Shown here: one piece after another, positions 12,901-56,706 of the stretch
How the letters are laid out: the number at the start of each line of letters is the position of its first letter
Numbering within the stretch: position 1 is the first letter of the stretch
Source of the DNA: a virus
IMG/VR virus record: IMGVR_UViG_3300045009_000924
Span: 1-64,000 of that record
Length of the DNA: 64,000 nucleotides
Strand: one strand, 5' to 3'
The notes under the pieces: model-generated
Database searches by the model: none
Told to the model about the DNA's origin: nothing
The model's input: the letters and a program-made list of their open reading frames with translations, nothing else
Position numbers and translations under genes: made by a program

Positions 12901-15481
12901 GAGCGCGCGCTAAGCGACGAAGACGTTTGTCGCCCATGCGTGAATAATCAACATCCGCACCCTTACTAACCCCGAGTGAAGGTCGTCCTGGTGTTGCGGC
13001 TGGTCCGCCGGGTGTGTGAACGCCGGTAAGAGGCGTTGCACCATAACCGGCATTCAGTATTTCCCGACGCTCAAACGCCCTCTGGTCCATTCCTGCCCTA
13101 AATCTGTCGCCTTTTGCAAATCCCTGCTTTGCCAATCTGCCAACCTGCATTGCTTCACTTAATCGCATTCTGTCGTCGACCAGAAGTCGACTAAATGAAG
13201 ATTGATTATTTTGAGAAAAAGTTAATGGTATTCCTCTCTCGTTGACATAAACACCACCAAGATGTCTTGTGTCTCTATAAACAGCTGCACCCCTGTTATT
13301 CTGCCCTCGGGAATCTTTTCCAATAACGCTAGTGTCAGTAATCGCTTGTGTTTTTATTGCATCAGTATCTGAAACTATCTGTCTCGTGAATGGCAATCCC
13401 GTTGCTGGGTCCATCATCATTGTTGCCCTTATTGATTGTGCGCCAGGCGTAAATTGGCCAGATGATATTGCAATACCCCCACCATATTGGCGTGCATCGG
13501 CTTGTTGGAATGTGCTTGACATCATTCTTCCACCCATGACATTTTGTTTTTCTGCAAAATCACTCAATTGACTACCAGATGAAACTCCATATATTCTTGA
13601 AAGGAATGGTCCGCGATAATGCATTAAATTAGATATTGCTGGTCCATACACCGGAAGTGCGCCACCCGGTGCCCCAGGGCCAAGGGCTGGATATGGCGCC
13701 ATGGGAGCTGCCGGATACCCACCACTCGAAAGCCTGCCAGACGAAGCGGCTGGAGAAGAAATTTGGGGTGACCCACCTGCAACTTGATTTCCGTTTACAT
13801 AAACATTTTGTGCTTGAATCGGCATATTTTGCAAATTAGAAAACGGAAGAGAACGACCTATTCCGGTTCCCATAGGCATCATTTTTCCAGCTGCCCCCAT
13901 CATTCTTCTGCCAAATATTTGAAAAGCCAATAGTGGCGCAAGTGCTCTCATAAATCCACCATTACCACCACCAAAACCGGTAAGCAGCTGGGTCATGCCG
14001 CGTATCAACATTCCTATTCCACTTAAAACATCGTTTAAGAATGGAAGTATTTCGAAAAATACTCCTTTCATTTTGAACAACAAATCAGATGCATCTCTTA
14101 TGAGGTCGCCTATTTTCGTACCGAATTGGACAACTGTGTCCTCGTTGCCCATGAGCAATTCTCTAAACCTGGTCATGTTTTCGACACCATCTTTAATCGC
14201 TAGCCAGATTTGACCAAATGATTTTTCAACAACTCTCGCGCCATCTATTAGGGGTCTTAATTTTTCGATAATAATATTCCAGCCACGTTTAAAATTGCTC
14301 ATCCATTCACCAAGTCTTTTAAACATTCCCTGAAAACCCGGAAGGTACTGACGAATTGTTTTAACCATCCAATTGCTAACTTTTTCTACACCGTCGACAA
14401 ATCCTTTTATCATTCCCTCAGAACCGAATTGAGCTTGAACAGTAAGAAGAATTCTTTGCATGTCTCTGGAAATTATTTCAAAAAGTCTTTGAAACGCTTC
14501 TTTTCCTGGTTTTAAGAACTGCATTCCAAAATCGGCAAATTGACCACGCAATAAAGTAAAATATCTTGTCAATTCACTAATTAATGTTGTATTAACTGCC
14601 TCAAATTGACCAAGCACGCCTCCCTTTTTAGCCAATTCTCCAGAGAACAAAAGTTCTTTAAATTCTTTTTTTGTTTTTATTTTTGTGTCTTTAAGAGCTT
14701 TTTCCATTTCTGGGCCAAGTTTTTTTGCTTCTGAAAGAACATTGCTTATCGTTTTCTTTTCGTCTTCCAATGCAGCTACTACTGTCCCAACTTGGGCAGC
14801 AGCTTTTTTCGGGTCTTGTCCTGCAGCGCCAAAGTCCATAAGCGCTTTCAATGATTTGCTACTTGCATTTATTTGAGATACATTCATCGTTTTTGACATT
14901 GAAGCAAATGCACCATTTAGGGCTTCCACTCCAAGGGAGGCAAGGTCTGCATTCATTTGCAAATTTCGCATAGCCATTACGGTTTGATTCATTGAAGTTT
15001 TGTATTGAGAAGCGCCCTTTCCTCGGTATGCGTACATTGCTGCCTGCTGTTCTCTTATCGCCGCAGACGCCCCTGCTAGGGCAACGGTGAATGCAGCCGC
15101 ACCACCGGCAAGTAACTGCATTACCCCCCTATACGCTTTTACCGCATACTGTCCAGCAATAACCAAGGCATGCCACGCAAGCATGGTGGCAGCAAGTATT
15201 CCCATTTCAATTATGACACCCTTTATGGCTGTTGTTAAAAATTTAGTTAATACTTTTCCAAAACCACGTATTACTGAATCAACAAAGTCAAAGTGTTTCT
15301 TCCATTTGCCTGTTGCTCTATTTAGTGCAGCGCTGGTTGCGTTTGCATATTTTTGTACGTTTTTTCCAGAGGAGAGACGACTCTCCATCGCTTCTGCTGC
15401 ACGAAGTTTTGCAATAAGAGCATCAAGCTGTTTAGTCTTGGTTATTACCTTGACTACTATGCTTACTTTTTCGTCGGCCAT
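9971..15481 (-). CDS. Tape measure protein with SAP-like domain and C-terminal M15-like Zn peptidase
   Basis: 1836 aa, Ala/Gly-rich and helical, downstream of tail chaperone; ITSAWR..SDH.TGRAYD...HLHV near the C-terminus. Confidence 0.85.
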   Translation of the reverse strand: MADEKVSIVVKVITKTKQLDALIAKLRAAEAMESRLSSGKNVQKYANATSAALNRATGKWKKHFDFVDSVIRGFGKVLTKFLTTAIKGVIIEMGILAATMLAWHALVIAGQYAVKAYRGVMQLLAGGAAAFTVALAGASAAIREQQAAMYAYRGKGASQYKTSMNQTVMAMRNLQMNADLASLGVEALNGAFASMSKTMNVSQINASSKSLKALMDFGAAGQDPKKAAAQVGTVVAALEDEKKTISNVLSEAKKLGPEMEKALKDTKIKTKKEFKELLFSGELAKKGGVLGQFEAVNTTLISELTRYFTLLRGQFADFGMQFLKPGKEAFQRLFEIISRDMQRILLTVQAQFGSEGMIKGFVDGVEKVSNWMVKTIRQYLPGFQGMFKRLGEWMSNFKRGWNIIIEKLRPLIDGARVVEKSFGQIWLAIKDGVENMTRFRELLMGNEDTVVQFGTKIGDLIRDASDLLFKMKGVFFEILPFLNDVLSGIGMLIRGMTQLLTGFGGGNGGFMRALAPLLAFQIFGRRMMGAAGKMMPMGTGIGRSLPFSNLQNMPIQAQNVYVNGNQVAGGSPQISSPAASSGRLSSGGYPAAPMAPYPALGPGAPGGALPVYGPAISNLMHYRGPFLSRIYGVSSGSQLSDFAEKQNVMGGRMMSSTFQQADARQYGGGIAISSGQFTPGAQSIRATMMMDPATGLPFTRQIVSDTDAIKTQAITDTSVIGKDSRGQNNRGAAVYRDTRHLGGVYVNERGIPLTFSQNNQSSFSRLLVDDRMRLSEAMQVGRLAKQGFAKGDRFRAGMDQRAFERREILNAGYGATPLTGVHTPGGPAATPGRPSLGVSKGADVDYSRMGDKRLRRLARARGLDASGSNADIVRLLQKNDRDRMLAAEAVKVQGTPQQARYEAQMSHAFKYGPAYKRYFKDVTTTAPDGTKTTQKIMRDPGLTARESLTKAAMRARGRLQDVGAYVGNKFAGVAGSAQGVMAYANSGRFDPTLNDGKGDFVNVTKMRQEALQRMKDQREQQNRGRFTTRLSYMREMMRISRSETKFGAASKRFAQSGTGRMGTSMGLSLASQYAPEEMRGAMALGGMVSMIDPRLGLAVAGVGGALKARSAGTGAAAGLVGGAAVGQYFGPYGAAIGAGIGTLVGAISGAVNKGKYELKEAKEAAEFALFSLFTGISERASRTFTVTREMQEKGIDISRRKRAFQGFGAKFIAARANVADKLRDVAGITAQDLVDADRKGMEFSSIPSYDATPAEWKAASDEYYKGSSKKRTAEKKVGKTASETLQYAFDNQTRLGISISEEQLKDMKKRPEESLQGLIGRAEQHDKVMTMLDNIGDARFAQLAKDTGKSEAELELLAQELGVDLYNATVKYKDIAVKMGAALILTSGQMNNAITDLMLQTGDKFRKKREQREAQKAINFATTELRDKYLSPGATDEEKDIASDAYFENYAAQQIAATGGDAFAAYEAARMGFGSIDKKTGKFVGGTAFAEGGSLSGLGGTDAQIKGVQTADEMRNAIAKTYSQQLAAMAQASGYSIDAGVLQKQIENMDDAKLKTLSTSIMSEGFDFRDSATGETTQGSIEAVLKRLNFSTTMPGRLTSLVDPLEENALDPFVGDMEAIATKFGIDYEIFKGAVNNYKLVTEKFFTGDSGAPDWWKKGLKATNQGGTFRLLPDDGGDTATPRGGQMGDTTTSRLSQTMARHQAINAQLTGKRQITSAWRNHNLGSVNSDHVTGRAYDLKGQNLGQYAKLIHANGGFAEFHGNLASRHLHVVPGPVPGVGDTPVPANNGGASSPMNYSTGPANYTININGANASPEAIASMVMAKLDDRERQYRER

Positions 15482-15543
15482 TACGTCTCCAAGTGATGGT
15501 TAATCACGTGAGTGTAAAAGCGCCGAGCTGTGTGGCCAGTATG

Positions 15544-15741
15544 CTACACAGTCTTCGACTTGCGCTCTTGCTCTTCGCGGTCGTTACGTATAACTCTAGC
15601 ACAGGCAAGCAGAATTAACCAGCTATCGTCGTCAACATCTAACAAAGAAAGTGGATTTTGGCCAAACAACTCGCCAAGACGAGCGGCGGCAGATACGCGG
15701 GAGTCTTTGACTAATTCGTCGTAGACTCCTTCGTAGGGTCC
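15544..15741 (-). CDS. Tail assembly chaperone -1 frameshift extension (G-T type)
   Basis: Start-less open -1 frame (YEGVYDELVKDSRVSAAARLGELFGQNPLSLLDVDDDSWLILLACARVIRNDREEQERKSKTV*) overlapping the chaperone end and filling the gap to the tape measure. Confidence 0.7.
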   Translation of the reverse strand, partial: GPYEGVYDELVKDSRVSAAARLGELFGQNPLSLLDVDDDSWLILLACARVIRNDREEQERKSKTV

Positions 15742-16253
15742 ACTGCCGTGACCGTATCGGAATATCCTGCGGCATCAAGAATAGCCAAAGCAGCTGACTC
15801 CACATGTGGGTCAACACCGAACATGGCGCGAACCGCATCCGGGACGGGTCGTGTCGTGTCTGTCATTTCCAAAATCGTTGGATGTGCAAAATTCAGATAG
15901 TTGCCATCCGAATCAAAAACTTCTTCGTCATCGATAAAAATTCCGACCGTTGTATTACCGATTACCAAACATGCAAATTTTGTTGCATCAAGACCGTTTC
16001 TCGTATCTTCACCAGCATTTTTGCGCCAGTTTTTCATTTGTGATTGTGTAATATTTGGACTTACCTTAATACTTACGCCAGGACGTTCGGGAACAGCAAT
16101 AAGAACATGTTGGCGCTCAACTTTTTTCTTAATTATGCTGCGAAGCCGGTCAAGTTGTGTTTCTTCCTTGACCTGTGGCAATGAAGTATCTTTTGAAGAT
16201 TGCTTCTTTTTTGATGAATCTTGATTGTCTGATGTATAAAGTGTTTCGCTCAT
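15711..16253 (-). CDS. Tail assembly chaperone
   Basis: Position between tube and tape measure; ends ...VDPTKESTTN with an overlapping -1 frame. Confidence 0.75.
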   Translation of the reverse strand: MSETLYTSDNQDSSKKKQSSKDTSLPQVKEETQLDRLRSIIKKKVERQHVLIAVPERPGVSIKVSPNITQSQMKNWRKNAGEDTRNGLDATKFACLVIGNTTVGIFIDDEEVFDSDGNYLNFAHPTILEMTDTTRPVPDAVRAMFGVDPHVESAALAILDAAGYSDTVTAVDPTKESTTN

Positions 16254-16260
16254 AACACGA

Positions 16261-16297
16261 AAACTATCACACTACGTATCCAATTATTGCAACTATC
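16261..16297 (-). promoter_or_regulatory. Putative phage promoter GATAG-TTGCAA-N20-TAGTTT
   Basis: Shares GATAGTTGCA with the element upstream of the sheath gene. Confidence 0.4.
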
Positions 16298-16300
16298 TAA

Positions 16301-16801
16301 TTATGACGCATTCTCTACATCGGAAATCGCAAACGTGAGGGCAAATGTTGACGGAGCGCCAGAAGATGAGTCGCCCTCTGGTTCAGTCAAGCCGACCAAC
16401 AATGCGTTGTAATATACGCGGTCGTTTGTTGGGTCTTTAATATCACAGTCGTAAACTGATACTGTAATATTGTAATAAGCAATTCCAACATATCTTCTCA
16501 AAGTTTTAAGTTTTGCCCCAATTCCAGCAGCAGTTTCCGCCGAGACCATATCATCGTCGTAGTGTGCGGTTAGTGTTATATCGCCAATTTCTGATGGCGC
16601 ACACAATACCGTTGGACGAGATTTGCCACCCTCGTAAATTTTTTCTACGGATGCAGTGATTTCCCCACCAGAAACCTGTGCAAATTTAAAGAGAGTCCAT
16701 TTTGGAAGGTTTTTCTGCACGTTGAGTTGTTGCTTGGTTGCGGCACCAAATGATGACGGCACAATGTCTGCCAATACTTGTCTTTGCGCTATTTTTGCCA
16801 T
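16301..16801 (-). CDS. Tail tube protein
   Basis: 166 aa directly after sheath; FAQVSGGEI...GDITLT..YD...PEGDSSS..F.LTF pattern. Confidence 0.8.
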   Translation of the reverse strand: MAKIAQRQVLADIVPSSFGAATKQQLNVQKNLPKWTLFKFAQVSGGEITASVEKIYEGGKSRPTVLCAPSEIGDITLTAHYDDDMVSAETAAGIGAKLKTLRRYVGIAYYNITVSVYDCDIKDPTNDRVYYNALLVGLTEPEGDSSSGAPSTFALTFAISDVENAS

Positions 16802-16815
16802 TTTTTATTCCTCCG

Positions 16816-18267
16816 TTACACCACTGAAGTGGTTAGATTTGATTTAACAATATCGATTTCAATTTGGTCGCCTACGCTGCTAACTCTCAATCCAATCCTT
16901 GCCTTTATAAGACCATCGTTTAGCTGTGAAGTTGGATTGATTGTTTTGTCACACTTGACCACAAATCCCGGGTCAAGCAACCTTCCACTTGAATCATATG
17001 CTGGATATAGGGCTCCAGTGTCTCGCATTGTTGCAAGAACCGAAACCAATCTTGCTGAAATATTTGAAAATATTTCGTTTCTGCCATCAATTGGACTAAA
17101 TACCAAATCCTCAAGTGAGAGATAAGATTCAGCAACAATCGTGTTTACGACATCCTGTTGTGTGATGTACTTGAAATTGTCAGTGTCAATTGAGCAGGAG
17201 CGAGCACCATAAATTCTTACAGTGTTTTGAATTACTCTGATTGCGTTAACAGAATTCTCATCGAGGTCATCGCCAACAGTTTTGTCTACATCAAATTTTA
17301 CGCCAGTCACAAATCGCGAGGTTGAAATCAATCCGGCAGCTGGAGTGTGAGTTCCGCTTTGATTATGAGCAACGGCTCTTTTCGCTGCGACGTAACCAAC
17401 CGGCGGAACCATTTTTGTTATTCCAGCAATTGACGTAGGAATTTCCACCCATGGGTAGTAGTAAGCGGAATGTTCGGCATGGTTCAACTGTCGAACTGCA
17501 AATGCAGCTGCTTTGGCCTGTGCTACCGTTTGTGTTTCTGGACCAGAAAGCAAAGCAATCCTGTTATATGCATTTGCATGCTCTGTCAAATATTCATTCA
17601 TTGCTTCTGTTTGATTTTCTGGACATGCAACAGCACCAACACCCAATGCGTCATTGAACAGCAAAAGTGAACTGTTGAAATCGTCTTCATCAAGGGAGGT
17701 GTCTAGTGCGCTGCCAGCACTTAGTGACGTTGCCGCAATCGTGGATGGCAATAAGTTTACATTATCCACTGCCGCACTAAGATAACGAGATGCAACCGCA
17801 CTTGAATTAATTCTTCCCACGGCCTGCGATGAGCTGGTTACATTTCCGGTTGAGTAAACCAAATTATCTTCAAAATATACAAGTATTCTGAATGAGGTGT
17901 TCGAGTTAATTACCTGTATATCGACATCTTCCGACCAGCTGCCAGCTCCGTTAGCCGTGAGTGTTATTACATCGTTGTCGCCATTCAAAAGCGTTAATTC
18001 ACCAGCAGTTGCAGAAGCCCCAACAGAACGAGCAACATATGCTCTCGTACCACCCTCTTCAAAGAATGTCTCTACCGTTGGGTGAAGATATGAGTCTGAA
18101 CGATATTCACCGAAAATATCTTCAAATTCAGCAAGACTTTCAACAAGCACTGCCTCATTGCTCGGCCCACGCTGAGCAAGACCAACAACAAAAAGCTGCG
18201 ACGATTCACGAACCGTCGCTGTCGACGGGCCGGTTCTAACTGAGGTTGATATAACTACACCAGGCAT
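16816..18267 (-). CDS. Tail sheath protein
   Basis: MPGV, GLAQRGP, FFEEGG.RAYV.R, AYYYPW, PP.GYVAA and RIYGARS sheath motifs. Confidence 0.92.
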   Translation of the reverse strand: MPGVVISTSVRTGPSTATVRESSQLFVVGLAQRGPSNEAVLVESLAEFEDIFGEYRSDSYLHPTVETFFEEGGTRAYVARSVGASATAGELTLLNGDNDVITLTANGAGSWSEDVDIQVINSNTSFRILVYFEDNLVYSTGNVTSSSQAVGRINSSAVASRYLSAAVDNVNLLPSTIAATSLSAGSALDTSLDEDDFNSSLLLFNDALGVGAVACPENQTEAMNEYLTEHANAYNRIALLSGPETQTVAQAKAAAFAVRQLNHAEHSAYYYPWVEIPTSIAGITKMVPPVGYVAAKRAVAHNQSGTHTPAAGLISTSRFVTGVKFDVDKTVGDDLDENSVNAIRVIQNTVRIYGARSCSIDTDNFKYITQQDVVNTIVAESYLSLEDLVFSPIDGRNEIFSNISARLVSVLATMRDTGALYPAYDSSGRLLDPGFVVKCDKTINPTSQLNDGLIKARIGLRVSSVGDQIEIDIVKSNLTTSVV

Positions 18268-20710: not shown

Positions 20711-21604
20711 TTACTTTTTTCTTCCTCTTCTTACATTTGTTTTTCTTCCGGCTTTCTTTACGGTTGCTTTTCTCGCTCGGTTGGCGGCTTTCGCCCTAGT
20801 CGCTGATTTCGCTTTTGGCGGCTTTTGGGGCAATGCGGTTAAGCGACCTCTAGCAATTTCCTTACCTTTGGAAATTTTCAATCTTGCAATGTCCGCTTTT
20901 CCGCCTTTCATATATGGCCTTATTTTTATTCTTTGGGTTCCCCTGTCGCTAACCACTCCCTGCTTGTTTCTTTTCATTCTTCTGTCAAAGCGAGACATCG
21001 CATCTCTCAGACGTTTTGGATTTGTTCGACCAAGGTAGCTAAGGCCACCCGAATCCCTGCTAGCCGTAGCCAAATTTATTCTATCTTCTACTTCTTTTTT
21101 AGTTGGTTTTCTGTATACAAGCCTTCCCCTTTTGTCGCGTTTTTGTTTTCCGGTTCTTGGATTTCTAACCGCTATTCTTCGATTTGCCTCTCTGATAATT
21201 TCCTTGTTTGTGGCCTCCGACCTTGACAGTATGGTTCTTCCTTTAGGTTTTTCGTCAAAAAGAGTTTGACGTCTGCCTTCTTCCATTATTGAGCGTTTCA
21301 TAAGTTTTCCCGTTCTTTTATTACGTGCCATTTTTCCGCGTTTATAAAATCCTCTTTTTGAGCCTACTTTGCGAGCCCCTTCGCCATATTCGGCCAAAAT
21401 TTTTAGGTCTTTGTAACGTCCCTTTTCTATGTCTTTGTCAGTTAGGCCAAAAAGCTGCTTAGCCATTTTCGCTGCGCGGTTATACCTACGACGAACATCC
21501 CTTTCGACTTTTCCCGCTTTTGTCTGTTCCTTAAATAAAAGAATGTCAGACAACATTTGTGCTGCATCATCCGTTATATCTGGGCCGTAGCGTACTCCGG
21601 GCAT
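20711..21604 (-). CDS. Highly basic K/R-rich protein, possibly nucleic-acid binding
   Basis: Very high K/R content, tail KPPKAKSATRAKAANRARKATVKKAGRK; GGAG RBS. Confidence 0.7.
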   Translation of the reverse strand: MPGVRYGPDITDDAAQMLSDILLFKEQTKAGKVERDVRRRYNRAAKMAKQLFGLTDKDIEKGRYKDLKILAEYGEGARKVGSKRGFYKRGKMARNKRTGKLMKRSIMEEGRRQTLFDEKPKGRTILSRSEATNKEIIREANRRIAVRNPRTGKQKRDKRGRLVYRKPTKKEVEDRINLATASRDSGGLSYLGRTNPKRLRDAMSRFDRRMKRNKQGVVSDRGTQRIKIRPYMKGGKADIARLKISKGKEIARGRLTALPQKPPKAKSATRAKAANRARKATVKKAGRKTNVRRGRKK

Positions 21605-21666
21605 TTTAACTCCAGTAAATATTTACATATTTGTATTGCTATCTAGATAATACCAGAAAATTTAAT

Positions 21667-22221
21667 TTACCTGTCTGCATTGGGCGGAGATTCAAATTCC
21701 ATCACTTTTGACGATTGTGCATTGGGGGGTGCCTCAATCGGAACCCAGGCTTTTGAATAGTTGTGCTCTTTTATATTTCTTTGCTTTATCAAGTCACCAT
21801 CAACAAGAACTGACAATTCTTCATTGCCCATTGACAAATACATTTTCAAATCGGAGACAGAATAGTCACCAGTTTCGTATATTGTTTTAACAACTTTAGA
21901 CAGTTTTTCTGTAACTATTTTTGAATGTCCTCGATTCAGTCTGATGTGAAGCATCATTGAATCTATCACATCCAGGTCGTGAACAACGGCTGGAATTTTA
22001 GAATTACAGCGCTCGGATATTTCTTTTATTGATTTTGCCAGCAAAAATCTTTCCGAACCATCAATTATTTCTCCAGTTGATTTTCTAACATGAATGGGGT
22101 GAATAAAACCGAATTCAATTAACGAACCAGCTATCAACATAAGCTCCGGTCTGAGTGTGTGTGTAACTTTCCAACTTGGAACCGATAGCTCGGAAAATTT
22201 AATTTCTTTGATTTCAATCAT
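21667..22221 (-). CDS. ParB/Srx-fold protein (IbrB-like)
   Basis: SL.EFGFIHPI.V....IIDG..R motif and LNRGH; adjacent to IbrA-like gene. Confidence 0.7.
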   Translation of the reverse strand: MIEIKEIKFSELSVPSWKVTHTLRPELMLIAGSLIEFGFIHPIHVRKSTGEIIDGSERFLLAKSIKEISERCNSKIPAVVHDLDVIDSMMLHIRLNRGHSKIVTEKLSKVVKTIYETGDYSVSDLKMYLSMGNEELSVLVDGDLIKQRNIKEHNYSKAWVPIEAPPNAQSSKVMEFESPPNADR

Positions 22222-23348
22222 TCTGTTATTTCACTTTCTTCCATTGTTCGAACTGTGTGCGCTCTGGTTTTCGGACCAACTGGCGTTGGTGAGTTTACAT
22301 CGATTTCGTGTAACAATAAGTTTCTTATGAGTAGGCTTAGTGGATATCCCCTTGGGTCAGAAGAATGTTTTTTTCTAAATTTTGAAACGTATACTTTTGC
22401 TTCCATTTTTCTTCTTTCGCCAACTAGGTATTTTTCTATAAACTCAGACGCTCCGTCAAACCCCTTTTTTGAATAACTCATGATAAGTTTTTCCACATCA
22501 AAATCCGGCCATAAATTTCTTTGTGCATCTATGTATGGAAAACATTCAAAAAGCCTGTCGTAAAATTCCGGCTCTGTCGCTATTACGTCGCCAATTCTTC
22601 TTATTGCGGTTGCGTGAAGCGGAATTCCAACCCTGGTATTGCTTCCAGTTATTGAAGCCAAGTCATAATATTTACAATATTCAGCGTTGTGCTCTTCGAT
22701 TATATATTTAAAAACATCGTTTGTATTCCAATCATAAATTATTTTTGCAAATTTTAAAGGTATTCCGCGTTTTAATTTATATGGAGTAACTATGTAATTT
22801 TCGTGCAACTTCTGAACAAGGGAGCGATATCTGACCATTGATTCACTTGCCCTTACTCCAGTTAGGAAAGCAACGTTTCCCCTTTTCCCTTGCATTGTGT
22901 AGTAATCAGTTTGTTCCGGTAGAGAAACGGTGTGGTCAAGTCCAAAATCATTTGCATTTATTGCCCAATCGGGCATGTCGCGAACCCATCTGTCCTGAAG
23001 CATTCTTTGATAACTCCATAAGAGTGTGGTTATTCTTCTTCCCAAAACCCATATCTCTGCCGGATATGGAAGACAGTACCACTCCATGTCAATCCATTCG
23101 TAATTTCTGACTTTTTGAACATAATCAATTACTAGCGGACTAACCATCTCTTCGTCTCTAAAAATAACTTTCACTGGGCCGAGACCCCTTTCTTCGTGCA
23201 CCTCTTTTGCTAGATACAAAACAGCAGTTGAATCTTTTCCACCCGAAAACTGGACACAAACAGTATCAAATATGTCGTAAACGTGTCTGATTCTTTTTCG
23301 CGCAGCCTCGACACATGTCATGTCAAGAAATAAGCGCTGTCTGGTCAT
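22218..23348 (-). CDS. PAPS-reductase-family PP-loop protein (IbrA-like)
   Basis: FSGGKDS PP-loop, FRDEE, GVRASES.VR and IYDW..NDVF motifs; start set at the ATGA overlap with the upstream gene (MTRQRLF). Confidence 0.85.
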   Translation of the reverse strand: MTRQRLFLDMTCVEAARKRIRHVYDIFDTVCVQFSGGKDSTAVLYLAKEVHEERGLGPVKVIFRDEEMVSPLVIDYVQKVRNYEWIDMEWYCLPYPAEIWVLGRRITTLLWSYQRMLQDRWVRDMPDWAINANDFGLDHTVSLPEQTDYYTMQGKRGNVAFLTGVRASESMVRYRSLVQKLHENYIVTPYKLKRGIPLKFAKIIYDWNTNDVFKYIIEEHNAEYCKYYDLASITGSNTRVGIPLHATAIRRIGDVIATEPEFYDRLFECFPYIDAQRNLWPDFDVEKLIMSYSKKGFDGASEFIEKYLVGERRKMEAKVYVSKFRKKHSSDPRGYPLSLLIRNLLLHEIDVNSPTPVGPKTRAHTVRTMEESEITE

Positions 23349-24181: not shown

Positions 24182-24519
24182 GATATAACTTGTGTTCTAA
24201 CATTTGCATTCAAAGTTCTAAGTGCGTCAATTGACGTACGCAAAGATAGCAAAGCTTCTCTTTTTGCCTTAACTAAAGCTTCTGCACACCTATATTCATG
24301 ATTCTGTTGGTCCATTTTGTAGTCCGCCCATGCTTCTCTTTCTTTAATTGAACCTTTTGCGGACAAATATTCTTTCGCCCAATTGCTTTTATACATCGCT
24401 TCCTTTTTGGAACAATCCATAGCAATTGTTTCAAATTGTTCAGTTTCATTTTCAAGTCGGTCCATCAAGCGAAGAATTTCCTGTTCCACCTCAACTTGAC
24501 TGATTGGAACGCTTCTCAT
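24178..24519 (-). CDS. Helical hypothetical protein
   Basis: Overlapping stop/start with both neighbours; coiled-coil-like composition. Confidence 0.65.
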   Translation of the reverse strand: MRSVPISQVEVEQEILRLMDRLENETEQFETIAMDCSKKEAMYKSNWAKEYLSAKGSIKEREAWADYKMDQQNHEYRCAEALVKAKREALLSLRTSIDALRTLNANVRTQVIS

Positions 24520-25046: not shown

Positions 25047-25076
25047 GAACCGACACTACATCTGATGCGGTACGCC

Positions 25077-25117: not shown

Positions 25118-25192
25118 AACCTATAACGGTCCTAAGTGATAATCAGTGTATTGAATTAATAAATAATGAAAGTGTTAATTTTCGAACTAATA

Positions 25193-25564: not shown

Positions 25565-25583
25565 GGAGAGATGAAATTATATC

Positions 25584-48195: not shown

Positions 48196-51100
48196 ATGAA
48201 AAAAACACGTCACATTATTTCAGAGCGTCTATTCGCGCCCAAAAAATGCTGCGATGGACAAAATGAAAGAGCAATTGCATTTAAGAGGGCAATATATATT
48301 TCTGCTAAAACAGAAATATTGAATCCCGATATAGCCGTAAAAGCAGCAATGTCGATTGGCGATTCCTACGGCGGAGGAGAAAAAAGAACAACGTACGAAG
48401 ATACGGATAATAGAAAAAGAGATTTCAGCGGAGATTTGCCGCCAGGTTTAGAAAAAGATGAATTGGGAAATATTTGGGACAAAAATAAAAAATACACACC
48501 GGGTGACAGGCTTGTTCTTTTCCCGAATAGATTAACAAGAAACAGATTACCACAGACTCCAAATTTTGGTTGGATTTCTCCACCCGCTCAAAAAAATGTT
48601 GAAAAATCAGAAGAAAATGAACCAGTCATTGTATTAAAAAAATACAAAGTAAATCCAAAAACTGACGACATAATTCCATCAACTGAAAAAATTTTAAATC
48701 CCCTAAATCATTCTTCCGGCGACAGCATGGATGACTTTATAAACGGAATTACAAAAAGTAATAAAATAAATACGAAAATACTCCCTGGCAGACCCCTGAA
48801 AGACAGAATACCGGGAGGAAGGCTCATTGCCAGAGCAGCCGCAATGATTGGCATAATAACAGACGCAAATAATAAATTTAGATGCCCACCGGGAACTCCA
48901 GCAGCAAATCAATTCACCGATATGCGTGGAACAACTTGTTTTGGATTTAGTGCATCAAGGTTTGCAAAATTTGCCGCAGAAAAAGCCGTAGAACTAACCG
49001 ACGCAGGAGAATTGCAAGGTTTTAAGCGATTCGTAAGTAGGGCCATGAACTGGGTTAATGGTGGCTCATGGGATGACGACCAAGGAATAAGCAACCTTCC
49101 AGTCAACAGACCTATTGAATACTTTTTTGGAAGAACACCAGGTTTCGACCCCGTCACGGGAACAACCGCAAGACCGGACTGGGCATCTGCCGATGTGCCA
49201 GATTCTGCTGGCGGCAGAACTTTTAAAAACACAATGATTGAAGGTCAAAGAAGAATTGATGAAGCAAAAAAAATAGTAGATGATTTAATGTCATCACTTG
49301 GCGTGGATACTTCTGCTCCAGCAAGGGAAAACAACTCCGATATATATGAAACTTTTGACAGACTCAAGGAAAACGGACAGTGGGATGTTCAAATAGAAAG
49401 ACTAGATGACAACGAAGTTAGAGCATTGGTTGTAAAAGAACTGAGGAGAAGATTTAGAGCCTTAAAAGCATCAGGAGAAACAACACTAACATTCGACTCC
49501 CTGCCACCAGAAATAAAAGAAAGCTTAATTAAATCCGAAACAGCAAGATTCAGAGTTACGGAAAGAGCTGTTGCCAGCACCATTCTTGAACAATTTGCGT
49601 TAATGCCAGAACATATGAAAAAAATAAAAACTATTCGTTTAACAAAAAATGAACCTGGCACAAAACATCCGGATGAAGGTTCTTTCGGATTTATGCAAAA
49701 CGCAGAAACGGGAGAAATAGCATCTTCGATATTTTTTAATTTTGACACGATTTTAGAAAATCAAACAAAGAATGTTCCTGGAATAAAATTTGACGAAAGA
49801 CTTTTGGTGACAGCAATTGATGGAATGTCTGATGCCGAAAGGGCTGAAGCAGTAGCAGATTTTATAACAAGTGCAAATGATTTTGCAAAAAATAGAGCCT
49901 CACTTGTTTCTGGAGTTGAATCATTTTCCAGATTTATAGCTTTGCACGAAATAGGTCACTCTATTCAGGGCGAAGCGTTTGTTGCGTATTTGAAACGCAA
50001 CTTTGACGAAACTGGAAAACTTGAATTTGTTGATTCGGCAGGAAAATTGCGCTCATTTACATCAATTACAGAAATGACAGCCAGTGATTTTAACAGCGCT
50101 CTCGTGGCGTTTTCGCGAGATGCGATTGAGTCAAACCCCGCATTAAAAGAACAATTATTAAAACTTGCCGATGTTTACGGCAAATACCCCCGTGGATACC
50201 TTGATAACGGAGGGAGTGGATTTTTTCTTTTAGAAGCCCAAGCAGAGATGTGGGCTATGCGAGAAATGGGATTAATACATGGTGATGATATTGACCTCGC
50301 GCTCTCCTCAATGGACGAATACGAAAACGCAGAACTAAGAAAACAAAGGCTCAAAAAAGCATCTTCCATTGTCGAAGAATCAAAAGAAAAAAGAAAAATA
50401 GAAAGCATGAAGAGGCCGTGGGAAAAAACAGATAAACAAATAGATTCTGATATGAAAAAAATTAAAGACAGAATTAAGGACAGAGAGGGAACTGATAATT
50501 CAGATTTATTGAATATCGCCGCAGTGGCCGAACTTGAGATGGATGATGCCAAAAATAATTACGACTTGGCGAGTAAGGAATATGACAGAATCAAAGAAGC
50601 AATTGAAAAGGGTGAAGATGTTGACTTTGATTCGGCTTCAAAACTTGATGTTTTGGCAAGCGCCAAGGAAAACGCTAAAAAAGATTTTGAATATTTTAAA
50701 AAAATAAGAGAAATGACTAAAAAAGAATGGATGAGCAGAAACACCATTGGCGACAGGGGGGCCTCAAGAGAGTTTGAGGATGCTCTTTACAAATTTAGAG
50801 AAGAAAAAGGAATTTTGAAAGGGTCAGAAAAAGCAGAAATTGTTGAAAAATTAAAAATACAAGAGCTAAAAGCTCAAGCAGAAAGACTTGACGACAAATC
50901 TCTGGTTGACGATTACACAAATATTATGTCCATTATCGACAAGGGTGAATATTCTTCGCCAGAAGAATACGATGAGATGCTTAAACAAAGCGAAATACTG
51001 TTAGACGAATACATCAGAAGAGCCAGAGCTGCTGGTGATACAAGAAGAAAAAGCACAATACGAAAAAGTCTGCTTGAAAAAGTAGATGAAAAATCTTCTC

Positions 51101-54100
51101 CAAAATCCAAAAAAATTAAAAAATTTAAAAGCGGAGCAGATGCAAAAAATCATGCTCAAAAAGAAAGAAAAAATCTTCGCAGAAAAATATCAAAAGAGCA
51201 AGCGCAGGCAGTTAGGGAAATGGGGGATTTCAAGTCGAATTCAATATCCAGAATTTTGCACCCAGAATCAAATGCACAATCCGGAAGAGCAATGAATAGG
51301 GCAAACGCAAGATTGCGAAGACTTGGCCTCGAGATAGATAAAAAAACAACTTCCGACGGGTCAATGGAAGACCAAGTAAAAAATATTTTGATTCCAACCA
51401 TGGAGGCCATGGACCTATCGTCGGCTTCCGAGCCATTCGAAATGGAAGCAATAATTGAATTAGAGCCAGGCGAATTAAGCGGAAAAGCATTGGGTAAAGA
51501 ATTTGACCATAAGGGCTTTGTTAACGGAAGGGTAATCAGCAAAGGCCATAAGAAGGGTGACGTCTCTAAAAAGAAAAATCCACAAACGGGCAAAAAGCAA
51601 AATCGAGTTATTGTGACCGTCAAGGAAGGTGACAGGGGGATATTCCCATCGGCTGGAGCCGATGAAAAACAAATGTTTGTTATTCCGCCAGGAAAAATGA
51701 GGGTAATCGGGAGAGACCCAGATGGAACAGTAAGAGTTGAAATTTCTTCGCAAAAAGGTACGACCGAAGTTCTTGATGATTTGGCAAGGGATTTGGCAGA
51801 GGGTTCCGGTGATGCAATCTGGAGAAAATCAGCAGCTGCGAAAATCCAAAAAATTTCCGACAAAAGAGTCGTTGATGTTCCATCACGTCTTTCGTCTGGC
51901 AGAACGTCAGTATCAAAAGACAAAGAAGCAGTGTCCAGGGAGCTGGTTAAATCACTAAAAGATAAAGGCTCCACTTTTGGTTCATATTCAGAAGTTGACG
52001 ACATGATGGACGAAATAAAAGACCCAGACAGCCCAATGTTTTTACTTAAAGGGGACACAGATGTAAAAATAAATAATTTAAGAACATATTTTGAACGCTC
52101 AGTGCCCAAGGGGGACAGAGAATCATTTATGAAACATTTCGAACAAACTATGAGCGAAATAGAAAAACTCATAGACAGAAGTTCAACCAAGGGGAGCATG
52201 GGACAGGTAGAACCCCCAGAATTTGTTGTTAGAATCCAAAAAGAAATAGAAAAAAACCTTGTTAGGTTAACAACTAGAGATTTTTTGGGGAAAGACCCAT
52301 ACGGAGAACAACAATTCGTTGATGAAGATGGCGTTGAATATGGATGGGTAACGACAAGTCGGGGAGGCGGAAAGGGGCGTTGGGTTCCAACTGGAAGAAC
52401 CGGACGAAAACCAACACCGTTTTTTCCTGTTCAAAAAATAGACAAAGACGAACTCGACCCCAAAGTAGAAAATTTAATATCCACTTCCTCCACAAAAGAA
52501 ATAGAAAAAATAATTGAGCAAGCAGCTATAAGATTTCACCAAGGTCTCGATTCGAGGCCAAGAGTACGAATGCGCGAATCAGAACTTGATGATTTTGCTG
52601 AAACTGGAAAAATAAGAGCAACAAAACGCACTGGCTCATCTGCTGTTTCGGGTATATCGAGAAGAACAGAAAGACTTTCATCTGGGGCTGAAAGAACATA
52701 CAAACCGGGCGCAATAAAAGACGAAATTGAGTTTGCTGAAAAAGCTAAAGAAAAAATAATAGAACTTTATGAAAAAGTTGACCCCCCGGTAATTCCAGAA
52801 GGAACATCCCCGGCGGCAAGAGAAGAAATTAAGAGAAATCACCTAAACAATTTTTTTGCCTCACTTACTGATGTTCAACTTTCAGCGATGGGCCTAGAAA
52901 AACTATACGACGAAAATGGAAATCCCAAAGTGAGCGTCACTACGGGTCAAATTGTTTTTGCAGTCAAAAACGCAGAAATGGCAATAGCAATGTTGGCAAT
53001 GGGTCAGACTGTTCGGATTGACGACGGAAAGCGAAAAGATGAACCCAGAATGGTGGAAAATGCAGCAAATCAAATAAATAAACTTTTGAAAGACGTTAAA
53101 GACTCCAAAGGAATTTTGCAAACTATTGATTTATGTAGAGTTTATTCTGAGGGCGATAATGTTTGGTGCTCAGAAAATATAGGCGTTGATAGAAAAGAAA
53201 TGCCACAGGTCGGCGGGATGGCAGCAGACCACCGAAGTCTTGCCATGAGATTGTGGAAGTCGCAATTCGCAACAGCAGAAACAATAAATGCTCACTTCGT
53301 AAACAGTGACGGCAAAAAACTTAAAAAAGAATTGAAAATCACAGAACAAATTAAAAAATTAAGACAAGATGGAAAAGTTGCGGAAGCGGATGAATTAGAA
53401 AAAGCATGGGGTCGACTTGAGGGAATATGCCATCAACATGATGGCGTTAGTTCAAAAAAATTAAACGGAAAAGATGAAATAAAAATAGAATACAAAATTG
53501 ATGGTAAAAAAATAAAAGAAACCATCTCCCCGGAAGAAGCCAGAGCAGTAATGGAGCGTTTTGGGGTTAAATTAACCGGAAAAGATATAAAAGAACTTGG
53601 TGAAAGATGGAATCGAGAAGGAGAACTTAAAAAAATTAAAAGCATGCCCGATGGGGAAGAAAAAGAGAAATTACTCGAAAAATTTGTTGTTTTCCAACCG
53701 TTGAGCAAAGAAGAAAAAGAATTGTTTTTTAGTCATCTCGATTATCCATATGTTGAGCCAGATGGACTTGACCAATTTATTGATTTCTTGGATTTGTTGA
53801 ATGTGAAAGTCGATAGTGAAGAAATCGTTTCAGCAAAAACACTAAAAGCGTCACAACGGCAAATAGATGCTGGAAAAACCGACATGCTGGGCGAGGTGAT
53901 GAAGTATGCACTTAAGGACATATTGAAAGAATATGAAAAAATACTTGAAACAGACGGAAAAGAAGCTGCAGATTTGTGGAGAGAAAATGAAATTGCGAAA
54001 CTAAGAAGGGAACACGGTCTTTTCAAAAAAATTATTATTTCAAGCGACGGATACATTGTTGATGGACACCACAGGGTGGTGGGAAGAGTTCTTTCTGATG

Positions 54101-56706
54101 CAGTTGAGGATAATCCACTTCTTCAACTTGGGATGACGATAAGACGAGTCGACATGCCGATTGTTGAATTGTTAACTGTCTCTCGCGTATATCAGGACCA
54201 TCTTGGTCTTAAGCCTGCAAGCTTGGAAAAGGGTGCTCCAGAAACATATATCGAACAAGGAATAGATGCAATCCAAGAAATCGACAAAGACACCATTGAC
54301 GCCATGCACGGCAAGCTTCTTTTTGAACTCGATGACAGACTGGCAGATATTTACGACAAGGGAACATTTATCCAAGTTGAATCAGTTGGCCTACGCCAAA
54401 AAAGCAGCGAATATGTGGACGCATTACTAGAAAAACGAAGAGTAGCTTCACTAAAGACACGCTTTAGAAGGAAAAAATCACCCGGAACGCCAGTCGAAGA
54501 ATTCGAAGAAAAGGTAAAACAGCGTTCACAAAAAGGAGAATTGGTCGAAAGTGGTTCGGGAAGGCTTTCCTCTGGGGCCGAAAAACAGTTGGATGCGGGG
54601 GAAGTAGCAAAACAATTACGGCCCATTGATTACATTTCAAAGCGAGTCAAACTTGAAAAATCAATAGACAAAGAATTTAAAAATTCCGTCGATTCTGTTT
54701 TCCAAAAGATAAACAAACTTTCAGCATCTGAAATATATGGAGCAAAAAGTAAATACATTGGAAATAAACAATTCAATGAATACGCAGAAAAATTCATAAA
54801 AAGCTTACCCGGCACCATTCCGGAAGAAGAAATCAGCAATTTTAGAAAACTAACTAAAGCTGTTGGAGAATTGGTTGATAAATATGCAGAAAGCAAAACC
54901 ATGAGAACTGGAACAAAATCTGCAGCAAGAATGATTATTACCGCATTAAAAATAATTCTCGACAATAAATATTTTAATAATTCGATGTCGGCGATTATGG
55001 TGCCGGGCACTGGCGGGCAAGGGGCTTTTACTTTTCTTGATGCATGGATTGACACCGGCGCAAGAGAAATCTCCAAATCCGAAGGTATTAAATCAGTAAT
55101 TGACATGTTGGTGATTGCGGCGGTCCTTGGAATATCGAGGGGACCCAGAGCCACCAAATTACTTAAAAAATATTTTAAGAAAGATAAAAAAGATAAATCT
55201 CCATCAGATTCCGGTCAAAGACTATCTTCCGGTTTGGCTCCACCTGGAAAAAGAAATGCGTTGAATTCAGCACAAAAAATTTTGAAGAAAACAAATATCA
55301 ATTCAGAATCTTCAGAAAAAATAATGTTTGCCTACTCCGGAATTTTAAATTATGAAAAAGGTTCCACAAATACGGAATTAGAAACAATGGCTCGCCGAGT
55401 AAAATTCAACTCTGGTGAAACAATAACAAAAATGATGATGGAAAAACTTGTTGACGCAGACAAAATAACAGAAGAACAAAAAACAGTAATGATAGAAAAA
55501 CTCGGATTAAATATAAACGATTTTGATGGAATGGAGTCTAAATCGAAAGCAATCAAAAATGCATTCAATGATGGCATCGATGCTTTGGATTTTTACATAA
55601 CAAACCAAGACAAAGAAGAATATTCCGGGAGAAAAGTTGGATATGGCTATGCAAAAAGAAAATTCGGGCCGGATGAATTTGATATAGATGAAGAAGATGT
55701 CTCAACGAACATGTCCCTTTCTGCCCTGAGAAGAGGATATTGGGCGGATAATGGATTAAACGAAAATATTCAAGATGATGAAATGCCAGTATCTGGCTAC
55801 CTTATTCACAATTCACAAATTGAAGCAAAGAAAAAAATGATTAAAAAGAATGGTTCAATAAACATCGACGATGACGCAATATTTGAAATTGGAGATAGTG
55901 ATATTTTCGGTGATGGCCTAACAGCACAGGGAGAGATAGAAGTTGTGTTGTCTCCAGAGGTTTCGTCAAGAACTGCTTACGGAAGGGGTTCAGCGCTAAA
56001 AAATGGACAAAAACCAGTATCGATGAGGTCTGCATCAAGAAGAGATATAGCACAAGCGCTAGTTGGCTCAAATCAATCGATGGATACACAGGCGGCAATA
56101 AATATGCTGGCGGCTTCATTTGATAATGATTTTTCCGCAGTTGCGTCCAGGAAGCCGAGCGGCTCAAGATATAAACAGATTGGTCAATCAATTCCAGAAG
56201 ATTTCGAACATGAACAAATACAGGCACACATTCTCGGGGGATTTGATAAAGACGAAGTCGAATCAATCAATTACCCATTTTCAAAAATCCAAAAACTTTC
56301 TCAAAAGGAAGACTTAAAAGATATAGCAGATGAAAAATCAATAGCAGCGATGCTGAGAAAAGCCGGTTTCACGGAAGCGGAAATAAAATATTTTTATTCA
56401 ATATCTGATGGAAAACCGTTTAACACACAAAGCATGCAGGCGTTGAAGTCATATCGCGCAGCTCAAAAAATAAGAGAAAAATATAAAAGACAAGGATTCA
56501 ATAAAATTAATTTTGCTCACCCACAAGGAATCAATATCGACAATCCGGCCACATACAACATAAATGCCACACCTAGTCAATCAGTTGAGGAAGTTCTTAA
56601 GAAAAATATTGCAAAAGAAATAGCAGAACAAGCAAAAAGGGTTTTGAGAGAAATGAGGAGCAATACAATTCCCAACTTTGAGATTTTGACTGGGAGAAAA
56701 AAATGA
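48196..56706 (+). CDS. Giant polyvalent head protein: zincin, degenerate ART-like, ParB/Srx-like and DUF3626-like domains, four RLSSG motifs
   Basis: ALHEIGH...EAQAE; EFDHKGF...VKEGDRG...VIPPG; LKASQ...ISSDGYIVDGHHR; PVSGYL...QAHILGG. Confidence 0.8.
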   Translation: MKKTRHIISERLFAPKKCCDGQNERAIAFKRAIYISAKTEILNPDIAVKAAMSIGDSYGGGEKRTTYEDTDNRKRDFSGDLPPGLEKDELGNIWDKNKKYTPGDRLVLFPNRLTRNRLPQTPNFGWISPPAQKNVEKSEENEPVIVLKKYKVNPKTDDIIPSTEKILNPLNHSSGDSMDDFINGITKSNKINTKILPGRPLKDRIPGGRLIARAAAMIGIITDANNKFRCPPGTPAANQFTDMRGTTCFGFSASRFAKFAAEKAVELTDAGELQGFKRFVSRAMNWVNGGSWDDDQGISNLPVNRPIEYFFGRTPGFDPVTGTTARPDWASADVPDSAGGRTFKNTMIEGQRRIDEAKKIVDDLMSSLGVDTSAPARENNSDIYETFDRLKENGQWDVQIERLDDNEVRALVVKELRRRFRALKASGETTLTFDSLPPEIKESLIKSETARFRVTERAVASTILEQFALMPEHMKKIKTIRLTKNEPGTKHPDEGSFGFMQNAETGEIASSIFFNFDTILENQTKNVPGIKFDERLLVTAIDGMSDAERAEAVADFITSANDFAKNRASLVSGVESFSRFIALHEIGHSIQGEAFVAYLKRNFDETGKLEFVDSAGKLRSFTSITEMTASDFNSALVAFSRDAIESNPALKEQLLKLADVYGKYPRGYLDNGGSGFFLLEAQAEMWAMREMGLIHGDDIDLALSSMDEYENAELRKQRLKKASSIVEESKEKRKIESMKRPWEKTDKQIDSDMKKIKDRIKDREGTDNSDLLNIAAVAELEMDDAKNNYDLASKEYDRIKEAIEKGEDVDFDSASKLDVLASAKENAKKDFEYFKKIREMTKKEWMSRNTIGDRGASREFEDALYKFREEKGILKGSEKAEIVEKLKIQELKAQAERLDDKSLVDDYTNIMSIIDKGEYSSPEEYDEMLKQSEILLDEYIRRARAAGDTRRKSTIRKSLLEKVDEKSSPKSKKIKKFKSGADAKNHAQKERKNLRRKISKEQAQAVREMGDFKSNSISRILHPESNAQSGRAMNRANARLRRLGLEIDKKTTSDGSMEDQVKNILIPTMEAMDLSSASEPFEMEAIIELEPGELSGKALGKEFDHKGFVNGRVISKGHKKGDVSKKKNPQTGKKQNRVIVTVKEGDRGIFPSAGADEKQMFVIPPGKMRVIGRDPDGTVRVEISSQKGTTEVLDDLARDLAEGSGDAIWRKSAAAKIQKISDKRVVDVPSRLSSGRTSVSKDKEAVSRELVKSLKDKGSTFGSYSEVDDMMDEIKDPDSPMFLLKGDTDVKINNLRTYFERSVPKGDRESFMKHFEQTMSEIEKLIDRSSTKGSMGQVEPPEFVVRIQKEIEKNLVRLTTRDFLGKDPYGEQQFVDEDGVEYGWVTTSRGGGKGRWVPTGRTGRKPTPFFPVQKIDKDELDPKVENLISTSSTKEIEKIIEQAAIRFHQGLDSRPRVRMRESELDDFAETGKIRATKRTGSSAVSGISRRTERLSSGAERTYKPGAIKDEIEFAEKAKEKIIELYEKVDPPVIPEGTSPAAREEIKRNHLNNFFASLTDVQLSAMGLEKLYDENGNPKVSVTTGQIVFAVKNAEMAIAMLAMGQTVRIDDGKRKDEPRMVENAANQINKLLKDVKDSKGILQTIDLCRVYSEGDNVWCSENIGVDRKEMPQVGGMAADHRSLAMRLWKSQFATAETINAHFVNSDGKKLKKELKITEQIKKLRQDGKVAEADELEKAWGRLEGICHQHDGVSSKKLNGKDEIKIEYKIDGKKIKETISPEEARAVMERFGVKLTGKDIKELGERWNREGELKKIKSMPDGEEKEKLLEKFVVFQPLSKEEKELFFSHLDYPYVEPDGLDQFIDFLDLLNVKVDSEEIVSAKTLKASQRQIDAGKTDMLGEVMKYALKDILKEYEKILETDGKEAADLWRENEIAKLRREHGLFKKIIISSDGYIVDGHHRVVGRVLSDAVEDNPLLQLGMTIRRVDMPIVELLTVSRVYQDHLGLKPASLEKGAPETYIEQGIDAIQEIDKDTIDAMHGKLLFELDDRLADIYDKGTFIQVESVGLRQKSSEYVDALLEKRRVASLKTRFRRKKSPGTPVEEFEEKVKQRSQKGELVESGSGRLSSGAEKQLDAGEVAKQLRPIDYISKRVKLEKSIDKEFKNSVDSVFQKINKLSASEIYGAKSKYIGNKQFNEYAEKFIKSLPGTIPEEEISNFRKLTKAVGELVDKYAESKTMRTGTKSAARMIITALKIILDNKYFNNSMSAIMVPGTGGQGAFTFLDAWIDTGAREISKSEGIKSVIDMLVIAAVLGISRGPRATKLLKKYFKKDKKDKSPSDSGQRLSSGLAPPGKRNALNSAQKILKKTNINSESSEKIMFAYSGILNYEKGSTNTELETMARRVKFNSGETITKMMMEKLVDADKITEEQKTVMIEKLGLNINDFDGMESKSKAIKNAFNDGIDALDFYITNQDKEEYSGRKVGYGYAKRKFGPDEFDIDEEDVSTNMSLSALRRGYWADNGLNENIQDDEMPVSGYLIHNSQIEAKKKMIKKNGSINIDDDAIFEIGDSDIFGDGLTAQGEIEVVLSPEVSSRTAYGRGSALKNGQKPVSMRSASRRDIAQALVGSNQSMDTQAAINMLAASFDNDFSAVASRKPSGSRYKQIGQSIPEDFEHEQIQAHILGGFDKDEVESINYPFSKIQKLSQKEDLKDIADEKSIAAMLRKAGFTEAEIKYFYSISDGKPFNTQSMQALKSYRAAQKIREKYKRQGFNKINFAHPQGINIDNPATYNINATPSQSVEEVLKKNIAKEIAEQAKRVLREMRSNTIPNFEILTGRKK

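Follow-up and report, generated by a model that had tools for sequence, protein, structure and literature searches.

A phage contig with repeated RLSSG peptides

The window analysed here comprises the first 64 kb (64,000 nucleotides) of a 103,248-bp phage contig, IMG/VR record IMGVR_UViG_3300045009_000924 (hereafter G000), which comes from an uncultured, lake-type phage and has a CheckV completeness of about 65%. Two giant open reading frames (ORFs), A (4804 amino acids, aa) and B (2836 aa), lie downstream of the portal gene, and the pentapeptide RLSSG is repeated in both of them and in the tape measure protein (Table 1). According to Pfam, A is built of an N-terminal Peptidase_S78 (S78) domain, a conserved 460-aa module, and a series of cargo modules with junction peptides between them. 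The cargo modules include a sigma70_r4-like helix-turn-helix, ArdC-N with MPTase-PolyVal, two small paralogous domains, a superfamily 1 helicase, and a UvrD helicase. A ParB-like domain, which the initial annotation (made from the sequence without database searches) had placed in this protein, was not recovered by Pfam.

To locate the motif, all six frames of the window were searched. Exact RLSSG occurred 12 times, always in the coding frame and in three ORFs only (six copies in A, four in B, and two in the tape measure protein), at precisely the 12 positions given in the initial annotation. The copy number expected from composition was 0.033 in about 20,000 aa, in agreement with the earlier estimate of well under one, and RLSSG was the sole non-low-complexity pentamer enriched in the window proteins. 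No exact copy was found in the remaining 32 window ORFs, as had been claimed for the capsid, sheath, tube, baseplate, and non-virion proteins. Beyond the window, at contig positions 73953-89714, a third giant ORF, C (5254 aa), carries eight exact RLSSG copies together with two RISSG and one RLASG. The contig total is 20 exact copies, confined to four proteins (A, B, C, and the tape measure protein). No BLAST similarity was detected among A, B, and C or between them and the five other virion proteins compared; therefore, a repeated-domain origin of the motif was rejected. The sequences flanking the RLSSG sites were also mutually unrelated.

Table 1. Positions of the junction peptides and of the genes and domains discussed in the text
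Feature	Position in the window	Strand	Remarks
Tape measure protein, 1836 aa	9971-15481	-	Between tube/chaperone and baseplate genes (assigned by position); homologs of relatives in the same place
RLSSG, tape measure aa 583	13721-13735	-	Between conserved N-terminal part and Gly/Pro-rich region
RLSSG, tape measure aa 35	15365-15379	-	Orthologous site following each genome's own code
Portal protein	29777-31858	+	Directly upstream of A; Pfam E = 2e-50
Giant protein A, 4804 aa	31954-46368	+	ORF, Pfam; homology blocks of relatives begin and end at junctions
Peptidase_S78 domain, A aa 30-179	32041-32490	+	PF04586, E = 6.6e-11, 43 bits vs 21-bit cut-off
RIKSG, A aa 703	34060-34074	+	RLSSG in L004, L005, and L006; linker with pLDDT<50
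RLSSG, A aa 881	34594-34608	+	Six-frame search; alignment; linker in model
RLSSG, A aa 1060	35131-35145	+	Six-frame search; alignment; linker in model
RLSSG, A aa 1089	35218-35232	+	Search and alignment; N-terminal border of ArdC-N/MPTase module
MPTase-PolyVal zincin, HExxH at A aa 1294	35686-36075	+	Pfam E = 1.3e-31
RLSSG, A aa 1444	36283-36297	+	Closes a 43-residue linker; next domain begins directly after
RLNSG, A aa 1537	36562-36576	+	RLSSG in three relatives; linker
RLSSG, A aa 1655	36916-36930	+	Search, alignment, model
RVSSG, A aa 3016	40999-41013	+	RLSSG in L006; helicase block ends here
RLSSG, A aa 3165	41446-41460	+	Search, alignment; UvrD block begins at aa 3170-3184 in relatives
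RVSSG, A aa 4103	44260-44274	+	Shortly past Pfam UvrD_C end (aa 4057); orthologous alignment gives no confirmation
RLQSG, A aa 4259	44728-44742	+	xLSSG/LASG in six relatives; high-scoring segment pairs of the C-terminal module start at aa 4257-4267
RISSG, A aa 4290	44821-44835	+	RLSSG in L064 only
Giant protein B, 2836 aa	48196-56706	+	First 1230 aa site-free, then four junctions
HExxH of candidate B-type zincin, B aa 584-588	49945-49959	+	Invariant Glu 96 residues past the second His
RLSSG, B aa 1231	51886-51900	+	Six-frame search
RLSSG, B aa 1493	52672-52686	+	Six-frame search
RLSSG, B aa 2123	54562-54576	+	Six-frame search
RLSSG, B aa 2342	55219-55233	+	Search; the module after it (B 2342-2836) is common to six relatives
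HK97-fold major capsid protein	61520-63004	+	Pfam; HK97 gp5 structures, E ~ 4e-47; N-terminal delta region of ~170 aa
KDVFTAMP, capsid aa 168-175	62021-62044	+	Candidate maturation site of the form aromatic-[ST]-small

Several near matches in A had been proposed as variants of the motif. RIKSG, RLNSG, RVSSG at 40999, and RLQSG are, on the evidence of alignment, real sites with one substitution, because they are aligned to canonical [RK]LSSG or xLSSG in relatives; RISSG is matched in a single relative. FLRSG (34924, A aa 991) was discarded, since it is inside a confidently predicted helix and is not LSSG in relatives. Conservation of RIDSG (33868) and QLRSG (33961) was not found in relatives, and their status as sites is uncertain. 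The region of A aa 4103-4263 (44260-44742) is a tandem duplication of ~77 aa, the copies of which are nearly identical as protein and end with RLQSS and RLQSG, respectively. The C-terminal extension of the portal protein contains ALSSG (aa 559, 31448-31462). This peptide was absent from all 11 distinct portals of relatives captured and is probably a chance occurrence, so that it was not taken as a junction site.

Placement of the sites between modules and in linkers

To clarify where the sites stand relative to folded domains, A aa 690-1700 was modelled with AlphaFold2 from an 8-row alignment (mean predicted local distance difference test score, pLDDT, 62). Six of the seven modelled sites were located in segments with pLDDT<50 (34% of the model), and the sites mostly directly preceded the next folded domain. 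The exception was the site at A aa 1089, at a helix end and loop with pLDDT of ~72-79. The ends of homology blocks shared with relatives were closer to the sites (median, 53 aa) than to random site positions (140 aa; P ~0.001). Thus, the placement in linkers that bracket domains, as had been claimed, was borne out; the model did not bury the sites in folded domains, and the alignment of homologs showed them conserved at boundaries.

The module order in A differed between relatives. In collinear relatives (44-64% identity), the sites were kept at orthologous positions although the flanks had diverged. By these alignments, the junctions coincide with the breakpoints of module exchange. Two small paralogous domains (93 and 118 aa) occupy A aa 1444-1654 (36283-36930); both open with GKIEDFA right after a junction and have a beta-rich fold in the model.

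The junction peptide differs between related phages and is followed by the tape measure protein

A related portal was encoded in 262 IMG/VR stretches, and 60 loci also include the giant ORF downstream of it. [LF]SSG ranked first among the 4-mers of this ORF in most of these loci. Which residue precedes it (R, K, S, or G) depended on the lineage, and RFSSG was used in some of them. The flanks of 279 distinct sites were polar, Gly/Pro-rich, and linker-like, with no additional conserved position. Loci retrieved with the capsid protein (60-85% identity) had quite different enriched peptides.

Eight complete or nearly complete relatives were then compared with G000 (Table 2). The code-free genome, G015, has unfused cargo genes, and the junction density follows the number of fused modules.

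Table 2. Junction codes of the nine genomes and the aligned N-terminal site of the tape measure protein
Genome	Junction code	Copies	Tape measure N-terminal site
G000	RLSSG	20 exact	RLSSG
G004	[LF]SSG	About 24 in giants	KLSSG
G007	[LF]SSG	About 10 in giants	RLASG
G010	GFASR	21	GLASRG
G016	[PA]LGSRS	21 (LGSR)	ALASRS
G013	GLAS[ST] / GLRS	~20	GLASS
G011	ISGRMG	13	LAGRMG, just downstream of the aligned position
G012	G[ML]RS	~10	
G015	No code; cargo genes separate	0	

The tape measure homologs retain sites near aa 35-45 and aa 580-750. The equivalents of the aa 583 site were FSSG, LSSG, or GFASS in G003, G004, G007, and G010, and the N-terminal site changed together with the code of each genome (Table 2). 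Since the orthologous tape measure site follows the private code of each genome, a reader that acts in trans and co-evolves with the peptide should exist. Since the N-terminal sites align, they also fix the register of all codes: a hydrophobic residue, then S/A/G (or R), then Ser (or Gly), then G/R/S.

On these grounds, the junction code is probably the cleavage signal of a phage protease. A phage endopeptidase would recognise the short peptide in disordered linkers and would cut the giant cargo polyproteins A, B, and C, as well as the tape measure protein, into separate modules. The cargo, made between the portal and capsid genes and partly fused to the prohead protease, would enter the capsid, and the pieces would be ejected into the host. 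The initial annotation had offered a protease site releasing separate effectors as one of its two readings. The linkers, the orthologous positions, and the genome-wide change of the code agree with this proposal, and the cutting itself is what we infer from them. Ribosome skipping (2A-like) or self-cleavage was set aside, since the signal has only 4-6 residues, lies in disordered linkers, and differs between lineages with presumably similar ribosomes.

Codon usage at the sites

The Arg, both Ser, and the Gly codons vary at the RLSSG sites, which argues that selection acts on the peptide, as had been claimed. A secondary bias toward CTT at Leu remains. In the contig, Leu was encoded by CTT at 16 of the 20 sites vs 29% in the background (P = 3.5e-6) and never by TTR, and the first Ser was always TCN. 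Over 250 clade sites, CTT reached 52% vs 35% in the background and TCT 50% vs 24%. Exchange of cassettes via the junctions, or a preference in translation, might account for this bias.

It may be asked whether the junction is conserved mainly as a nucleotide-level microhomology that promotes cassette exchange, with the peptide as a by-product. Modules are indeed shuffled at the junctions; CTTTCNTCYGG is common to eight of the 12 window sites, and the CTT bias and the 1.5-2 times over-use of CTT/TCT in the clade point in the same direction. However, all six Leu, six Ser, and all Arg and Gly codons were found at sites, every copy is in the coding frame, and all but one of the nine matches to the degenerate 11-mer are RLSSG sites. 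Furthermore, both tape measure copies fail to match the 11-mer, and the N-terminal tape measure site, which is orthologous and no cassette border, co-varies nevertheless. We consider the microhomology explanation highly improbable.

Candidate readers of the junction code

Since RLSSG-type junctions were proposed to be cut by a phage enzyme, the proteases of the nine genomes were compared. No site falls within the first 1230 aa of B, a module that is present in all nine genomes with 22-36% identity between them. An HExxH motif is found at aa ~480-680, at the equivalent position, in the B-like protein of all nine genomes, and the H, E, H, and later E of this B-type zincin were invariant in an 8-genome alignment. 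The B-type zincin was thus present wherever the junction code was present. It is quite possible, though short of probable, that a zincin borne in the cargo reads the code, with the HExxH module of the N-terminal 1230 aa of B as the best candidate. Such a zincin would act on all the ejected proteins, possibly only after ejection, in the way that MARTX effectors are released.

The RCPPGTPAANQFTD..G..CF motif at B aa 229-249 (48880-48942) was also invariant in the B-like protein of the eight aligned genomes. The RCPPGTPAANQFTD motif has two conserved Cys in an otherwise Cys-poor protein, is of low confidence and apparently unfolded in AlphaFold, and might act as a linear motif for targeting or for binding metal.

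The S78 prohead protease fused to the N terminus of A may read the code instead, a possibility that we hold tentatively. It would cut the capsid delta region and the junctions during maturation; the polyproteins would enter the prohead, and the freed modules would be trapped with the DNA until ejection. The S78 domain of A is intact, scores above the Pfam cut-off, and matches HK97 gp4 (BLASTP E = 5e-8), with H69 and S133 aligned with the catalytic His/Ser motifs. H69 and S133 were invariant in sets of 35 and 20 relatives, and the domain was nearly invariant in the 20. No solved structure for the S78 region was found by sequence search. The S78 domain is universal, always encoded by the next gene after the portal, and fused to cargo in nine genomes, including the code-free G015. 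The core of the code (hydrophobic, x, Ser/Gly) matches the conserved [FY]-[ST]-[AGS] motif of the capsid protein in form, the hydrophobic P3 residue is in common with the HK97 gp5 site TFNK/S (the slash marks the cut; Phe at P3), and Gordonia phage capsid proteins show VFSSG at the same boundary. There are also precedents: gp245 of SPN3US cuts nine head proteins at A-x-E, and T4 and phiKZ have comparable systems. Columns 85, 86, and 146 of S78 differ according to the residue (R, S, G, or K) that precedes LSSG in the lineage, a difference that is confounded by phylogeny.

However, S78 evolves the slowest of the proteins compared and is 72-85% identical in eight genomes with different codes (portal, 54-65%; capsid, 62-74%), which differ from one another at three to five positions of the peptide. 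The specificity of the known assemblin-fold prohead proteases is stable over much larger distances, as between phiKZ and SPN3US. The capsid protein shares only the general form (hydrophobic, [ST], small) with the junctions; its motif shows no co-variation, and none of the nine capsid proteins bears the junction peptide of its own genome. The tape measure protein is no head protein and is assembled outside the prohead, yet it has two conserved, co-varying sites. Both the constancy of the capsid boundary motif while the junction code changes and the occurrence of sites in a tail protein favour a zincin over S78.

Several observations weigh against the B-type zincin as the reader. The protease nature of the B module rests on HExxH...E and two weak fold or feature leads. 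The nearest Atlas cluster was ATLF (MEROPS M34) with 0.83, which is below the reliable range, and an anthrax-lethal-factor-like lead by VIA (Z 10.3, root-mean-square deviation 6.6, 230 residues aligned) stood amid helical and coiled-coil noise of similar Z. Foldseek gave no match of the B-zincin model to the PDB at E <= 0.001, and no Pfam or PHROG match was obtained for B. The B-type zincin also occurs in the code-free G015. A cleavage product has been seen for no member of the clade, and no cultured relative with the code was found. The register (hydrophobic, x, small) resembles the P3-x-P1 format of assemblin-fold proteases. All the experimentally known shared cleavage motifs in phage head cargo use the prohead protease, which favours S78. 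MPTase-PolyVal, the zincin meant by Iyer et al., is absent from three code-bearing genomes, and the known MPTase-bearing proteins (N4 vRNAP, ArdC, and TraC1) are, according to these authors, delivered unprocessed (PMC5512222).

MPTase-PolyVal (PF18818) was found in G000, G004, G006-G010, G016, G017, and G019, and was not found in G011, G012, and G013, three complete or near-complete genomes with 13, ~10, and ~20 junctions, respectively. It was therefore rejected as the general junction reader. A zincin of ~500 aa with HEMMHAKVSP is encoded in all eight relatives (e.g., G011 101645-103228) and is not on the present contig, which is incomplete; judged by its sequence, it is a third candidate protease. 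The presence and absence of proteases thus exclude only MPTase-PolyVal and leave S78 and the B-type zincin, which are universal, and the HEMMHAKVSP zincin, which is in all eight relatives. Taking these points together, we lean slightly toward a fast-evolving zincin carried in the cargo as the protease.

Readers other than a phage protease were also considered. The initial annotation had alternatively suggested a signal for packaging or threading, and an uncut docking or pacing signal might serve a chaperone, prohead loading, or the threading of unfolded chains via the portal and tail. The motif is limited to A, B, C, and the tape measure protein, for all of which ejection is expected, its sites are in exposed linkers, and the co-variation needs only a co-evolving binding partner, no protease. 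Nevertheless, the junctions are denser where more modules are fused and G015, with its separate cargo genes, has no code, as a release site predicts; the spacing of the sites in A is highly irregular (29 to 1361 aa); and no candidate binding partner was identified. This explanation seems quite unlikely. A host protease, to which each phage lineage is matched, would account for the lineage codes as a mirror of different hosts, and no phage enzyme has been proven. However, housekeeping proteases seldom differ so much in specificity between related hosts, and phages with 60-85% identical structural proteins use peptides as unlike as ISGRMG and PLGSRS, so that we give a host protease very little chance.

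A further step would be that protease and peptide form a matched, co-evolving, lineage-private pair that acts only after ejection, which we regard as doubtful. If it did, about 35 enzyme modules and the domains borne on the tape measure protein would be delivered as a few unfolded threads and cut to active effectors in the host, as a phage counterpart of autoprocessing multi-effector toxins, and the rapidly changing peptide "zip code" would double as the seam of cassette exchange.

Relation to known systems

Polyvalent proteins are giant multi-domain proteins encoded near portal and terminase genes and predicted to be packaged and injected; their processing by their own zincin peptidases has been proposed, no linker or junction motif was described (the term "linker" is not used), and assemblin-like peptidases were found at C termini only (Iyer et al. 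2017, PMC5512222). By its domains and gene context, A qualifies as such a protein. Pfam identified several unrelated conflict-type domains (ArdC-N, MPTase zincin, helicases, etc.) in its single chain of 4804 aa, and the giants stand in a virion gene block flanked by the TerL, portal, and capsid genes. In contrast to the described polyvalent proteins, the S78 peptidase is at the N terminus rather than the C terminus, a discrete lineage-specific junction peptide is present, also on the tape measure protein, and MPTase-PolyVal is dispensable for the code.

Shared motifs on head proteins are well known. Like SPN3US gp245, gp21 of T4 (L/I-x-E, capsid-targeting sequences) and gp175 of phiKZ act on such motifs. 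The likeness lies in one short motif on many packaged, ejected virion proteins and in an assemblin-fold protease in the head module. However, the cuts in those phages mostly strip N-terminal propeptides from individual proteins, and even distant relatives keep the same motif. In the present phages, one protein has as many as a dozen internal junctions that divide unrelated modules, and the peptide turns over between close relatives and reaches a tail protein.

Two other likenesses are functional analogies only. The polyproteins of RNA viruses are single chains split at a repeated site by a virus protease, such as picornavirus 3C or coronavirus Mpro; they provide replication machinery made after entry, whereas the present chains are apparent virion cargo of a double-stranded DNA tailed phage, and there is no homology. 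MARTX toxins deliver effectors as one chain that is autoprocessed after delivery at Leu-(Ala/Ser/Gly) in unstructured linkers; a cysteine protease domain of that type was not found here, and delivery here would be through the phage tail.

No published description of such a junction motif was found in the literature searched. The statement of the initial annotation that no shared linker code is known thus holds for the linker code, and must be narrowed in view of the shared protease motifs of T4, phiKZ, and SPN3US. The new elements are the density of internal junctions, their coincidence with module exchange, the rapid genome-wide turnover of the peptide, and the extension to the tape measure protein.

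If the junctions are cut, this would be a true polyprotein strategy for virion cargo, in which three chains, taking up about 39 kb of a genome of at least 103 kb, give rise to some 35 separate proteins, and the polyvalent-protein idea would move from "probably processed somehow" to defined sites. The predicted pieces include anti-restriction, helicase, ADP-ribosyltransferase-like, and peptidase modules. The code would serve as an exact parts list for proteins without database annotation and show where phages exchange modules, and the lineage-specific peptides would offer natural orthogonal pairs of protease and site. Another question posed by the code is why head cargo and the tape measure protein of the tail have a processing signal in common.

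Capsid maturation motif and neighbouring genes

The capsid motif KD[VI][FY][ST][AGS] was conserved in the majority of 79 relatives as well as in Gordonia and Brevibacterium phages that have been cultured, and the extended form KD[VI][FY][ST][AGS][LM]P was nearly invariant in capsid proteins down to 45% identity. In the window, KDVFTAMP precedes the position that corresponds to Ser104 of HK97 by 6-8 residues. It is likely, from this placement and conservation, that KD[VI][FY][ST][AGS] is the capsid maturation site.

The gene for TerL (28167-29483, minus strand) is followed by those for the portal protein and A. About 30 kb of cargo genes occupy, between portal and capsid, the usual place of the protease and scaffold genes. 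No cultured phage with an N-terminal S78-cargo fusion or a junction code was found, the Gordonia phages Chidiebere and DalanDe being checked, and a search of phage DNA with the structural block gave no match. Gordonia phage DalanDe (record 22424-27325, L235) encodes a "capsid maturation protease" of 1633 aa with the S78 match in its C-terminal third, a protease-cargo fusion of the opposite order and without a junction code.

Between the tail genes and the terminase gene, a set of recombination and DNA-handling genes is encoded on the minus strand (20711-27637): a Rad52-like annealase, a PD-(D/E)XK nuclease, a RuvC-like resolvase, two ParB_N proteins, and a PAPS-reductase-domain protein. In G004 (12220-17247) and G007 (5773-12090), one large ORF is dominated by collagen-like GATGPTG repeats, which are unrelated to the junction code.

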